Source of the DNA: Escherichia coli
GTDB lineage: Bacteria > Pseudomonadota > Gammaproteobacteria > Enterobacterales > Enterobacteriaceae
Length of the DNA stretch: 64,000 bases
Direction: 5' to 3' (one strand)
Assembly (NCBI RefSeq): GCF_029227855.1
Contig: NZ_CP074357.1
This document shows positions 33,670 to 37,443 of the stretch, one piece after another. The notes beneath the pieces were generated by a model. That model was not told the origin of the DNA and searched no databases. It saw only the letters and a program-made list of their open reading frames with translations. Made by a program: the position numbers and the translations under genes. Within the stretch, counting starts at the first letter, position 1. The number at the start of each line of letters is the position of its first letter.

Positions 33670-33929
33670 CATTTATGAATGTTCCTGTTATGGCTTATGT
33701 TCAAGAAAGCATTGCCCCTGAAATGATGGGCAAGGTGTTTTCCCTTTTGATGACCGCCATGACTCTTTCTATGCCGATAGGCTTACTTGTTGCAGGTCCG
33801 GTTGTTGAGGTTATAGGTGTTAATACATGGTTTTTCTGGTCTGGTGTTGCGTTGATAGTAAACGCTGTTCTCTGCCGCATTCTGACACGACGCTATGACA
33901 AAGTAACAATGAAACCGCAAGTGGACTGA
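33670..33929 (+). pseudogene. mef(B): 3' fragment of an MFS efflux gene, probably mef(B), 5' end removed by IS26
   Basis: Hydrophobic C-terminal ~85 codons ..VMAYVQESIAPEMMGKVFSLLMTAMTLSMPIGLLVAGPVVEVIGVNTWFF..; mef(B) identity inferred from the known sul3 linkage. Confidence 0.5.
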
Positions 33930-34074
33930 AAAAAGGACCGGGTTGATGATAATTTGTAGTGGTGAGCTTCTGGGAGTACAAAACAAAGTGCTCAAAATTG
34001 TCGGGCTCATGGCGTTTAACGGTATTAATTTCGCTTATAATAATCTTTCTATAATAGCCTAAAGGAGAATATCT

Positions 34075-34938
34075 ATGATACCTAATAGCGAAAATAAAAG
34101 AGTATGGTTTATTACCGGAGCAAGCAAGGGGCTTGGCTATGCTTTTACATGCGCCGCCTTGAAAGCCGGGGATAAAGTTGTTGCAGTTGCAAGGACTATC
34201 GATAATTTGGCGAAGCTAGAAGAAACATATCAAGAGAGCTTACTGCCATTAAACCTCGATGTTACAGATAGGGAGGCTGTTTTTTCTACGGTTGAAACAG
34301 CAGTTAAACATTTCGGTAGGCTTGATATTGTTGTTAATAATGCGGGTATCATGACTATGGGTATGATTGAAGAACTAAACGAATCCGATGCTCGGAAACT
34401 AATGGACACAAACTTTTTTGGAGCTCTTTGGGTTTGTCAGGCAGTGATGCCCTATTTGAGGTCGCAGCGTTCTGGACATATCATACAGATTACAAGCATT
34501 GGCGCTATTATCTCGGGTCCGATGTCTGGTATTTACAGTGCAAGTAAATTTGCGCTGGAAGGAATGAGTGAAGCCTTAGCAAAAGAAGCGGAACATTTCG
34601 GAGTGAAACTCACTATGGTGGAACCAGGAGGATATTGGACAGATTTATACACTTCGATGAGTTACAGCAATCCATTAGATTCATACGGTACACTGCGCGA
34701 TGAGCTGGCGAAACAGTATTCCGAAGATTCGGTCGATAGTGATCCTTCCTTGGCAGCGGAAGCCCTTATGAAATTAGTAGCCAGCAATAATCCGCCTTTG
34801 AGGCTTATCCTTGGCAGCATGGTATACGATTTGGCGATGGATACCTTAAAAGCACGGATGGCTACCTGGGAAGAATGGGAAGCTGTTAGCCGTGCATCAG
34901 AAAAGGCTATTCCTGCACCGGAGAGATATGGAGTATAA
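34075..34938 (+). CDS. short-chain dehydrogenase/reductase (SDR) family oxidoreductase
   Basis: 287 aa with TGASKGLG cofactor motif and YSASK catalytic motif. Confidence 0.8.
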   Translation: MIPNSENKRVWFITGASKGLGYAFTCAALKAGDKVVAVARTIDNLAKLEETYQESLLPLNLDVTDREAVFSTVETAVKHFGRLDIVVNNAGIMTMGMIEELNESDARKLMDTNFFGALWVCQAVMPYLRSQRSGHIIQITSIGAIISGPMSGIYSASKFALEGMSEALAKEAEHFGVKLTMVEPGGYWTDLYTSMSYSNPLDSYGTLRDELAKQYSEDSVDSDPSLAAEALMKLVASNNPPLRLILGSMVYDLAMDTLKARMATWEEWEAVSRASEKAIPAPERYGV

Positions 34939-34975
34939 TACCAAACATGGTTTTTGAGGCAAGGACGAAACTATC

Positions 34976-35221
34976 ATGAAAATTGAAATTATGGAATATA
35001 ACCCGGATTGGACAAAGAATTTTGAAGAAGAGAAAATAAAATTGCTCCATTTTTTCGGTTCTCATGCCGTAGCCATTGAACATATCGGAAGCACGGCGAT
35101 ACCCAATCAACGGGCGAAACCGGTTATAGATATATTTATTGGCGTTTCGCCTTTTGCTGAACTACCTTTTATCAGCGCATTTTTAATGCAAAGGAGTATC
35201 ACCACACTCCGACAGATATGA
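34976..35221 (+). pseudogene. GrpB-family protein, N-terminal fragment
   Basis: 81-aa ORF MKIEIMEYNPDWTKNFEEEKIKLLHFFGSHAVAIEHIGSTAIPNQRAKPVIDI.. about half normal length. Confidence 0.45.
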
Positions 35222-35689
35222 CAGGCAGATATTTGTTTGCAAAATATACAAATGAAGTTTGGACCCATAATCTTCTTGCTTTGGTGTAGGTATAATACCC
35301 AAAAACGAAGTTTATGCGGAACAGGATAACACCTCGAAATCGGAGTTTATATGGCTTCGTGGGGGAGTTATGTGTTTGAGCTTTGTCGCATTAACGCGAA
35401 TCAGGGGTTGACGGCAGAAATAGACTGGAATTACACTTCTTGGAGTCGGCGTTGCCGGAAAATTCTGATTGGATTAGTTGTTCGGGGTGCGAAAACAGTC
35501 GTAGTTCGGGGAAAAAACCGAATTTTGACCCAAAACCGCGAAAAACTCGAAATGACAGTTCCTATCAGTTTTCATAATGAATTAAAACAAAAAAATTAGG
35601 CTGCAAAGATAGGGAAAATGTGTCAATTTGCGTAAGTGATAATTAGTCAATTAAGATAAATGCTACTTTTGTAATCAAAGCAAAATGAT

Positions 35690-36481
35690 ATGAGCAAGAT
35701 TTTTGGAATCGTAAATATAACCACCGATAGTTTTTCCGATGGAGGACTTTATTTAGATACAGATAAGGCAATTGAGCATGCTCTGCATTTGGTTGAAGAT
35801 GGAGCAGATGTGATTGATTTGGGAGCCGCTTCCAGTAATCCTGATACAACTGAAGTGGGCGTTGTGGAAGAAATCAAAAGACTCAAACCTGTCATTAAGG
35901 CTTTAAAAGAAAAAGGCATTTCTATTTCTGTTGATACATTTAAACCTGAGGTTCAGAGTTTTTGCATAGAACAAAAGGTTGATTTTATTAATGATATTCA
36001 AGGTTTTCCTTATCCTGAGATTTATTCAGGCTTGGCAAAGTCAGATTGCAAACTTGTGTTGATGCACTCCGTTCAGCGAATTGGTGCAGCTACTAAAGTT
36101 GAAACGAATCCGGAAGAGGTTTTTACTTCCATGATGGAATTTTTTAAAGAAAGAATTGCTGCTTTAGTTGAGGCTGGTGTAAAGCGTGAACGAATTATTC
36201 TTGATCCGGGTATGGGCTTCTTTTTAGGCTCTAATCCAGAAACATCTATTCTTGTTTTGAAGCGTTTCCCTGAAATTCAAGAAGCTTTTAATTTGCAAGT
36301 AATGATTGCAGTGTCACGGAAATCATTCTTAGGTAAAATAACTGGAACCGATGTGAAATCTCGTTTAGCACCAACTCTTGCAGCAGAAATGTATGCATAC
36401 AAAAAAGGTGCAGATTATCTCCGCACCCATGATGTTAAGTCTTTATCAGATGCCTTGAAAATATCCAAAGCCCTAGGTTAG
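35690..36481 (+). CDS. sul3: sulfonamide-resistant dihydropteroate synthase Sul3
   Basis: 263 aa MSKIFGIVNITTDSFSDGGLYLDTDKAIEHALHLVEDGADVIDLGAASSNPDT..; AT-rich like its flanks. Confidence 0.9.
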   Translation: MSKIFGIVNITTDSFSDGGLYLDTDKAIEHALHLVEDGADVIDLGAASSNPDTTEVGVVEEIKRLKPVIKALKEKGISISVDTFKPEVQSFCIEQKVDFINDIQGFPYPEIYSGLAKSDCKLVLMHSVQRIGAATKVETNPEEVFTSMMEFFKERIAALVEAGVKRERIILDPGMGFFLGSNPETSILVLKRFPEIQEAFNLQVMIAVSRKSFLGKITGTDVKSRLAPTLAAEMYAYKKGADYLRTHDVKSLSDALKISKALG

Positions 36482-36702
36482 TTTTATTTTTTTAGCTTTC
36501 TAAATGAATATGCTATACTTGCTCTGAAGTTGTGTTGGCGTACTTGACTTAGGTCTGGATCTTTCGAACTGTTACTAAGAGGGTAATCATAGCCAAACAT
36601 AAACTGGAAATGTCCTAATTCTAAACCTGTTCCAATACCTACACTATGGTGATGCTGCCAACTTACTGATTTAGTGTATGATGGTGTTTTTGAGGTGCTC
36701 CA

Positions 36703-36978
36703 GTGGCTTCTGTTTCTATCAGCTGTCCCTCCTGTTCAGCTACTGACGGGGTGGTGCGTAACGGCAAAAGCACCGCCGGACATCAGCGCTATCTCTGCTC
36801 TCACTGCCGTAAAACATGGCAACTGCAGTTCACTTACACCGCTTCTCAACCCGGTACGCACCAGAAAATCATTGATATGGCCATGAATGGCGTTGGATGC
36901 CGGGCAACCGCCCGCATTATGGGCGTTGGCCTCAACACGATTTTCCGCCATTTAAAAAACTCAGGCCGCAGTCGGTAA
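36703..36978 (+). CDS. insA: IS1 InsA
   Basis: 91 aa [43 protein letters not shown].. Confidence 0.9.
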
Positions 36979-37400
36979 CCTCGCGCATACAGCCGGGCAG
37001 TGACGTCATCGTCTGCGCGGAAATGGACGAACAGTGGGGATACGTCGGGGCTAAATCGCGCCAGCGCTGGCTGTTTTACGCGTATGACAGGCTCCGGAAG
37101 ACGGTTGTTGCGCACGTATTCGGTGAACGCACTATGGCGACGCTGGGGCGTCTTATGAGCCTGCTGTCACCCTTTGACGTGGTGATATGGATGACGGATG
37201 GCTGGCCGCTGTATGAATCCCGCCTGAAGGGAAAGCTGCACGTAATCAGCAAGCGATATACGCAGCGAATTGAGCGGCATAACCTGAATCTGAGGCAGCA
37301 CCTGGCACGGCTGGGACGGAAGTCGCTGTCGTTCTCAAAATCGGTGGAGCTGCATGACAAAGTCATCGGGCATTATCTGAACATAAAACACTATCAATAA
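36897..37400 (+). CDS. insB: IS1 InsB frame (expressed as InsAB' by frameshift)
   Basis: 167-aa ORF overlapping insA in the -1 frame. Confidence 0.85.
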
Positions 37401-37443
37401 GTTGGAGTCATTACCGGAGAATTGTATCATTAACAGTCTAGTT

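Follow-up and report, generated by a model that had tools for sequence, protein, structure and literature searches.

The window, the 64,000-nucleotide stretch of DNA that was analysed, carries an intact sul3 gene that is preceded on the same strand by a truncated transporter gene, an oxidoreductase gene and a gene fragment, and is followed by a complete IS1. The locus raises a double question: whether the neighbourhood of sul3 is itself rearranged, and how IS1 came to lie between sul3 and the DNA beyond it. A first reading, made from the sequence only, had listed these features and considered them atypical. All of them were found where they had been placed, and the gene identifications proved right on the basis of profile and reference matches.

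The sul3 module and its references

All the features listed in the sul3 segment lie on the + strand. The first is IS26 (820 bp, 32850–33669), which has 14-bp IS26 ends at 32850 and 33669 and the Tnp26 ORF at 32895–33617. Its left neighbour is an aadA22-lnu(F) integron fragment, and an 8-bp duplication around it is absent (left GGTCAAGT, right CATTTATG). IS26 truncates mef(B), of which a 260-bp 3′ remnant including the stop codon starts directly after the IS26 end (33670–33929). The 85 residues encoded by the remnant match positions 325–409 of the 409 in the NCBIfam Mef(B) profile (E 3e-55), and RGI, run on a matching record, reports mef(B) at 100% identity; the 5′-truncated MFS gene had been taken as probable mef(B), and it is. 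A remnant of 260 bp adjoining IS26 is the published “ΔmefB260” signature (PMC5761274, PMC7355605). The remnant is non-functional.

The two other members of the module lie in the interval from mef(B) to sul3 and share the strand of sul3. The SDR-family oxidoreductase gene (34075–34938; Pfam adh_short, E 1e-50), which is orf1 or orfA of the sul3 module, has been described as a “putative oxidoreductase gene” (PMC6834847) and has no known resistance role. It is followed by orfB, a 3′-truncated GrpB-family fragment (34976–35221; Pfam GrpB positions 1–59 of 159, E 5e-18). Both products, WP_000612791.1 and WP_001354008.1, respectively, are annotated in pR18.0877_278k, pYD786-3, and D9 plasmid B. The sul3 gene (35690–36481) is intact: its product, a sulfonamide-insensitive dihydropteroate synthase, matches the NCBIfam Sul3 profile over residues 1–263 of 263 with 613.6 bits (cut-off 475) and contains the Pfam Pterin_bind domain, and its nucleotide sequence is 100% identical to that of the reference plasmids. 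Judging from the gene, sulfonamide resistance should still be expected. A promoter scan of 33600–36700 gave 11 promoter-like sites, not clearly above the mean of 8.1 ± 2.2 in shuffled sequence. The AT-rich character of the segment, remarked on earlier, is also real, with 40% G+C in the sul3 segment against 52–54% in the flanking IS26 and IS1.

The published sul3 module reads tnp440-sul3-orfA/orfB-ΔmefB260-IS26 (PMC5761274, PMC6834847). Window positions 32849–36647 are colinear with pYD786-3 and 100.000% identical to it over 3,799 bp, and the same module is present in D9 plasmid B. In the references, qacL/qacH and the cassettes are read in one direction and sul3, the two orfs, and mef(B) in the other, with the IS256-family gene situated 3′ of sul3. 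Beyond the matched segment, pYD786-3 continues with this IS256-family transposase gene (IS440/tnp440) and then with qacL, aadA1, and estX, all three on the minus strand, while D9 plasmid B continues with dfrA12-aadA2-cmlA1-aadA1-qacL. The alignments thus show that 32850–36647 is the standard sul3 module, with the order and orientation that are usual for it.

The sequence-only reading had pointed instead to a rearranged, atypical context: on that view, mef(B), the SDR gene, and the GrpB fragment would have been relocated to the upstream side of sul3, and IS440 would have disappeared from that side. Such an interpretation is understandable, since published diagrams of the type qacH-IS440-sul3-orf1-mef(B)-IS26 show no strands and can suggest that IS440 precedes sul3. 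Considered with strand, the alignment to reference sul3 contexts is colinear, which is the outcome that had been named in advance as speaking against rearrangement, and it holds at 100% from IS26 until 166 bp past sul3. Moreover, no differing gene order or strand was found in the sul3 module among 930 records that contain 80% or more of the sul3 segment. The proposal is therefore very improbable. As for the lack of an IS440-like gene upstream of sul3, the observation was correct, as no IS256-family gene is there, but it is not diagnostic: because sul3, the orfs, and mef(B) run opposite to the cassettes, IS440 is to be expected downstream of sul3, which is where the references have it, and its absence upstream is uninformative.

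The real departure from the reference is, by this comparison, on the 3′ side only, where IS1 stands in place of IS440-qacH. Native sul3-downstream DNA extends for 166 bp (36482–36647) and agrees at every base with pYD786-3 and D9 plasmid B as far as CTACACTAT. Past this point the references read AATCAAGAGGAC toward IS440/qacH, whereas the window copy is cut by IS1, which takes over at 36648. No qacH/qacL gene follows sul3, and with it the link to a cassette array and intI1 is missing. A ΔintI1-aadA22-lnu(F) fragment does lie nearby, but on the other side of the module and separated from it by IS26.

An ISCR20-like terminus upstream of sul3

The module also contains a component that goes unannotated in its conserved copies. 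Positions 35275–35571 (297 bp, + strand) form the 3′ (oriIS-side) terminus of an IS91-family, ISCR20-like element, 98.7% identical to L014:4001-4297, a segment that closely follows a transposase gene of the IS91 family (Zn_Tnp_IS91 and Y2_Tnp domains). The terminus ends in GTTCCTATCAG, 119 bp ahead of the sul3 ATG. A tblastn search of the window segment revealed no IS91-family transposase gene with Zn-binding and Y2 domains; the terminal 297 bp are what is present. The same terminus occurs upstream of armA and rmtE1, and the boundary is a conserved one, as the sul3, armA, and erm contexts part immediately after TTCCTATCA(G). Assignment of a 243-bp match upstream of armA to a part of ISEc28 was rejected, given that the ORF between ISCR1 and the match shows no similarity to the IS91-family transposase.

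ISCR20-like elements are found upstream of rmtE1 in pYDC637, upstream of armA in pSY153-MDR, and beside sul4. These contexts share with sul3 the same boundary and a resistance gene just beyond it in the same orientation; the sul3 context differs from them in that it retains the terminus without the transposase gene, whereas elsewhere the element is intact. The presence of the terminus by sul3 and of the intact element at armA, rmtE1, and sul4 therefore suggests, tentatively and with somewhat less than even probability, that sul3 was captured by an ISCR20-like element or moved next to one. If this were true, each of the four mobile sul genes would have a connection with ISCR elements. No statement of a link between ISCR20-like elements and sul3 was found in the literature searched, and the terminus may merit a short note on sul3 mobilisation.

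IS1, its flanks and the IncHI2 backbone

The IS1 at 36648–37415 is a complete, IS1B-like copy of 768 bp on the + strand, with intact ends (IRL GGTGATGCTGCCAACTTACTGAT, IRR end AAGTTGGAGTCATTACC) and insA and insB′ ORFs. As already noticed from the sequence, no 9-bp duplication surrounds it, the left flank being CTACACTAT and the right one GGAGAATTG; therefore it marks a junction and not a simple insertion. The DNA on its right had been regarded as an unknown block. The junction between this block and IS1 is real, but the block can be identified: it is IncHI2 backbone. Positions 37416–45001 contain hypothetical genes, DUF4942 and DUF1173 genes, and a cytosine methyltransferase gene, and 37410–45001 is 99.95% identical over 7,592 bp to pHNSHP45-2 (IncHI2A) and SJTUF10640, in both of which the backbone is uninterrupted at the IS1 site and reads AATAACA|GGAGAATTG.

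More extensive similarity places the source of the window in an IncHI2 multidrug-resistance plasmid, with pR18.0877_278k (IncHI2A, MOBH) as a close relative, to which 29243–55358 is 99.99% identical. A 3,883-bp query gave 100% full-length matches in many plasmids of 200–450 kb; the one that was typed is IncHI2A. The 1,382-bp stretch that adjoins the IS1 site on the left in the uninterrupted backbone is found nowhere in pR18.0877_278k; what remains of the left backbone breaks off within hns, at an IS26, and runs in the opposite direction to the right backbone.

The history of the IS1 can be read from plasmids that share its right side. In pCFSAN061772_02 (NZ_CP042895.1), the same IS1 (768/768), in the same orientation and with the same right flank, occupies the same site of the IncHI2 backbone; unlike in the window, it is there a simple insertion, flanked by the 9-bp duplication GGAGAATTG, the left backbone is kept, and no sul3 is adjacent. 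Compared with this plasmid, the left flank has been replaced in the window. At least 188 plasmids have the right, IS1-backbone junction, combined with no fewer than three kinds of left flank, and at least 73 have the left, sul3-IS1 junction; both counts, drawn from the 5,000 best-scoring records, are lower bounds, although full-length junction matches should rank at the top. The alternative left flanks include tet(M)-ΔIS26, carried by pSJ_255 and pTBMCR421, and, in pCTXM199_025970, a ~8.07-kb backbone deletion that is clean and colinear; the IS1 copies compared are 768/768 identical across all left-flank variants. These comparisons identify the window IS1 as the resident copy of the IncHI2 backbone with its IRL-side flank replaced.

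The counts also bear on whether the junction could be an artefact of assembly. Misassembly often occurs at insertion sequences, and a mis-join at a repeated IS1 would be a natural suspect, but the identical junction pair recurs in no fewer than 73 complete plasmids, which were sequenced independently and come from several genera and countries, so that an artefact is hardly credible. An inversion mediated by IS1 has likewise been ruled out. It needs a partner IS1 with flanks that match up with CTACACTAT or GGAGAATTG, and there is no second IS1 either within the 64-kb window or in the whole of pR18.0877_278k, which has a single one.

Origin of the junction and known counterparts

Adjacent deletion, the outcome of intramolecular replicative transposition, is classical IS1 behaviour. 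The best overall reading of the locus, held with a probability of about 0.7, is that a standard sul3 module was trimmed by an adjacent deletion from the resident IS1. In this reaction, the IRL end of the resident IS1 would attack the sul3-IS440 spacer of the same molecule, and the deletion would take out IS440, qacH, the cassette array, and the 1.38 kb of backbone formerly left of IS1. A deletion of this kind would leave an IS without flanking duplication. In an earlier step, the sul3 module was probably put in place when IS26 inverted a segment that had one end in the plasmid hns gene; the order of the events, inversion and then deletion, is the one suggested by parsimony. A precursor plasmid with sul3-IS440 left of IS1 in the same orientation (IS440-qacH...hns′-orfs-IS1) was searched for, and none was found.

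Two other routes lead to a similar structure. By homologous recombination, an IS1 normally inserted in the sul3-IS440 spacer could have crossed over with another copy in the IncHI2 backbone, which would join the left flank of the first copy to the right flank of the second and give a hybrid IS1 without duplication, an end product that is indistinguishable from that of an adjacent deletion. IS1 is abundant on these plasmids, some IncHI2 relatives having 2–7 IS1-matching places, and the backbone parent, an IS1 with its duplication, does exist. The parental or reciprocal junction that this crossing-over requires, IS1-CTACACTATAATCAAG, is conversely not contiguous in PLSDB among the matches listed, where six two-piece matches lie 621–824 bp apart. 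In addition, the listed records with the sul3-IS1 junction are all of 199–453 kb and most of them are also among the backbone-junction records, and the loss of the 1.38 kb beside the IS1 site from the whole plasmid is what a deletion predicts. On balance, recombination between two IS1 copies is unlikely.

IS1 is also known to form cointegrates. By intermolecular replicative transposition, the backbone IS1 could have moved into a second, sul3-bearing molecule, producing a cointegrate with two direct IS1 copies, from which later IS26 or IS1 events removed the second IS1 copy along with most of the replicon that had come in. The order sul3-CTACACTAT-IS1-GGAGAATTG-backbone has the look expected of one cointegrate end, and the long IS26-rich mosaic to the left is in keeping with it. 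Against this stand the single IS1 of pR18.0877_278k and the other junction, which occurs in no record among the matches listed; cointegration alone, furthermore, leaves the loss of IS1-adjacent backbone unexplained. This route is accordingly rated as quite improbable.

Both the sul3 module and the sul3-IS1-backbone arrangement are already known, and the arrangement is ordinary because dozens of sequenced plasmids share it (at least 73 public complete ones). Its use lies elsewhere: the CTACACTAT-IS1-GGAGAATTG junction together with ΔmefB260 represents an epidemiological marker of one IncHI2 sub-lineage, whose hosts are Salmonella, E. coli, Enterobacter, and Klebsiella and whose sources are people, poultry, pigs, and wastewater. 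It is also an example of a resident IS1 that trims resistance regions and leaves no duplication behind.

Among known systems, the reference modules of pYD786-3 (KU254580), D9 plasmid B (CP010154, E. coli), and pCAZ590 resemble the window from IS26 through 166 bp after sul3, with 100% identity, the same order, and the same strand, the ISCR20-like remnant included; unlike them, the window is without IS440, qacH/qacL, and cassettes, and IS1 starts 166 bp past the sul3 stop. In pR18.0877_278k (NZ_CP037959.1, Salmonella Goldcoast) the IS26-ΔmefB-SDR-GrpB-sul3-IS1-backbone arrangement is identical to that of the window, and it is common to at least 72 other large plasmids (199–453 kb among the matches listed); the differences from the window are IS26-bounded insertions and deletions elsewhere in the 64 kb, such as a ~12-kb mer-containing segment missing from the window. 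With respect to the proposed mechanism, the window resembles IS1-mediated adjacent deletion, in which one IS end and its flank are constant, the other flank varies among relatives, and no duplication is present. The clean, colinear 8-kb deletion in pCTXM199_025970 departs from the same IS1 end, and the window differs from it in that the proposed deletion endpoint is situated in a resistance module and not in the backbone.

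Composition of the sul3 segment

The sul3 segment extends from an IS26 copy mapped at both ends (32850-33669) to a complete IS1 of 768 bp (36648-37415). IS26 is followed by the mef(B)-derived part of a short MFS ORF (33670-33929, 260 bp), and a family scan identified an SDR gene (34075-34938; adh_short, E 1e-50), a GrpB fragment (34976-35221; profile positions 1-59 of 159), and full-length sul3 (35690-36481; Sul3, 613.6 bits against a cut-off of 475). The 85 residues of the mef(B) fragment align with the last part of the NCBIfam Mef(B) model (positions 325-409 of 409; E 3e-55), which makes the fragment the 3′ end of a gene truncated on its 5′ side. 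This remnant cannot be functional; sul3 is intact and should still give sulfonamide resistance. In the composition profile, G+C is 40% in 33670-36647 versus 52-54% in the flanking IS26 and IS1. The anatomy described in the sequence-only reading is confirmed by the ORF list, the composition profile, and the raw sequence. Its statement that IS1 lacks a target duplication also holds, since the 9-bp flanks, CTACACTAT on one side and GGAGAATTG on the other, differ.

An IS26-bounded integron fragment (ΔintI1, aadA22-like, lnu(F); 29250-33669) lies directly left of the sul3 module and has the IS26 at 32850-33669 in common with it. No 8-bp duplication is present at either of the two IS26 bounding this fragment (AGCCGACG/TTCTACGG and GGTCAAGT/CATTTATG). 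The final 92 bp before IS1 (36556-36647) also occur alone in plasmids without the remaining sul3 segment (two matches). This stretch may be related to a 49-bp sequence of which pRYC306 has one copy close to IS26 and a second close to sul3 (PMC5923156).

An ISCR20-like terminus upstream of sul3

In the search with the sul3 region as query, 243 bp (35325-35567) gave matches of 97.5% identity in hundreds of plasmids that lack sul3. In the Tn1548-like region of p3BJAB0868, the matching DNA stops 27 bp short of armA. A longer match (35275-35571, 98.7% identity) was found in a Providencia plasmid, where it starts with the final 15 bp of a transposase gene of the IS91 family, with Zn_Tnp_IS91 and Y2_Tnp domains and a match to the NCBIfam IS91 model, and extends about 280 bp past the gene. 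The sul3, armA, and erm contexts part directly after ...GTTCCTATCA(G), a terminus that resembles that of ISCR1 (...TACTTCCTATACCC) in the same Acinetobacter plasmid. The complete element, of about 1.58 kb, occurs in 18 PLSDB plasmids; it immediately precedes armA in pSY153-MDR and rmtE1 in pYDC637, and is truncated in the Aeromonas plasmid CP077204, cited as a sul4 carrier. Published papers use the name "ISCR20-like" for the element where it precedes rmtE1 or adjoins sul4. These matches and this naming identify the unannotated 297 bp at 35275-35571 as an oriIS-side remnant of an ISCR20-like IS91-family element. The remnant lies 119 bp upstream of sul3, within a conserved module: at least 80% of 35222-36647 is contained in 930 records. 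No paper linking sul3 to an ISCR20-like element was found in the literature searched, a search that did not include key reviews. This remnant is the sole element possibly worth a short follow-up.

IS1 and the IncHI2 backbone

By megablast, many PLSDB plasmids of 200-450 kb match 33618-37500 over its full length at 100% identity. The best match retrieved, pR18.0877_278k (NZ_CP037959.1) of Salmonella Goldcoast, is typed IncHI2A and has the same genes annotated. The "unknown block" after IS1 turned out to be IncHI2 backbone, the DNA from 37416 onward matching pHNSHP45-2 and an IncHI2 plasmid of Salmonella Typhimurium at 99.95% identity across 7.6 kb. The IS1 site is uninterrupted (...AAAATAACA followed directly by GGAGAATTGTATC...) in pHNSHP45-2 and in Salmonella Typhimurium and Enterobacter IncHI2 plasmids. 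IS1 is a resident of this backbone and is found elsewhere with its duplication, as a simple insertion with GGAGAATTG on each side in pCFSAN061772_02 (NZ_CP042895.1).

Among relatives, the left flank of IS1 varies and the right flank is fixed. By 300-bp junction-specific queries, the sul3-IS1 junction is present in at least 73 records and the IS1-backbone junction in at least 188; of the two, the right junction is thus the older or the more widely distributed. The right junction occurs without sul3 in pSJ_255 and pTBMCR421, where the left flank is a tet(M) segment ending in a truncated IS26, and in pCTXM199_025970, where same-orientation backbone from about 8.07 kb further left adjoins the IS1 left end, a clean adjacent deletion. 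At least 10 plasmids matched a synthetic query in which the left backbone, ending in GGAGAATTG, is followed by the IS1 left end. In all five contexts, the IS1 copies are identical to that of the window (768/768). NZ_CP073623.1 and NZ_MW719568.1 also have both IS1 junctions at this site. In one of these plasmids the junctions are separated by 1,944 bp, a distance compatible with a tandem pair of IS1 copies, and in the other by 690 bp, compatible with an IS1 that has an internal deletion.

pR18.0877_278k was rebuilt from seven stretches and compared with the window by BLAST. The two share colinear blocks of 99.9-100% identity, except for IS26-bounded insertions and deletions, and the whole plasmid carries only one IS1. 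Of the backbone expected left of the IS1 site, the plasmid retains only the part up to a breakpoint within its hns-family gene (94.9-95.3 kb of the record, stretch L018, outside the window), where the gene is truncated by an IS26. This part has the opposite orientation to the backbone right of IS1, an arrangement that implies an inversion by IS26 in the lineage. By BLAST, the 1,382 bp that should separate the hns breakpoint from the IS1 site occur nowhere in the plasmid. The roughly 3.6 kb at 3128-6718 of the window have no long match in pR18.0877_278k, and a segment of about 12 kb of that plasmid, including the mer operon, is missing from the window at IS26 (29250-30069).

Reference modules and origin of the arrangement

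The classical integron references were pYD786-3 (KU254580, IncX1) and E. coli D9 plasmid B (CP010154, IncY). In sul3 orientation, pYD786-3 starts with IS26-ΔmefB, in place of which D9 plasmid B has IS1. Both continue with SDR, GrpB, a small orf (annotated in pYD786-3 only), sul3, and an IS256-family transposase gene (tnp440/IS440), followed on the opposite strand by qacL and by aadA1, cmlA1, aadA2, and other cassettes. The shorthand "qacH-IS440-sul3-orf1-mef(B)-IS26" reads in the direction of the integron; sul3, the orfs, and mef(B) run the opposite way, with IS440 on the 3′ side of sul3. In D9 plasmid B, the same module is cut by a different IS1 (6037-6804 of its record, L003) at the equivalent of window position 34026, with mef(B) removed. 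That copy is IS1A-like, 99.1% identical, and in opposite orientation, an arrangement matching the 'IS1-like element adjacent to orfB' variant (PMC5761274).

The sul3 module is canonical. The window is 100.000% identical to pYD786-3 over 3,799 bp (32849-36647), and published descriptions name a "ΔmefB260 signature" (PMC7355605) and orf1 as "a putative oxidoreductase gene" (PMC6834847); the 5′ neighbours of sul3, earlier called atypical, are therefore canonical. Aligned with the reference contexts with strand considered, the segment is colinear, the outcome that the sequence-only reading had itself set against its claim. Identity runs to ...CTACACTAT, after which the references continue with AATCAAGAGGAC... 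and the window with the IS1 left end.

Adjacent deletion is classical IS1 behaviour, and the sul3-IS1-backbone arrangement most likely arose in this way. An inversion mediated by IS26, with hns at one of its endpoints, would have placed the module left of IS1, with its IS440 side toward IS1. By replicative transposition within the molecule, the IS1 left end would then have entered the spacer between sul3 and IS440, an event that would have removed IS440, qacH, the cassette array, the IS26, and 1.38 kb of backbone. The proposed deletion would account for the backbone loss, for the presence of one IS1 without a duplication, and for the series of different endpoints in relatives. Recombination between two IS1 copies, and cointegrate formation with subsequent loss, are other possible routes, but the junctions they predict are lacking: a synthetic query for the reciprocal or parental junction, in which the IS1 right end is followed by CTACACTATAATCAAG..., had no contiguous match among those listed.

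The sul3 observation is real and its meaning is ordinary, namely, a standard module shortened at its 3′ end by a resident IS1, in an arrangement already known on a widely sequenced IncHI2 lineage. What the window lacks of the reference sul3 module is the 3′ side alone, with IS440, qacH, and the cassette array.
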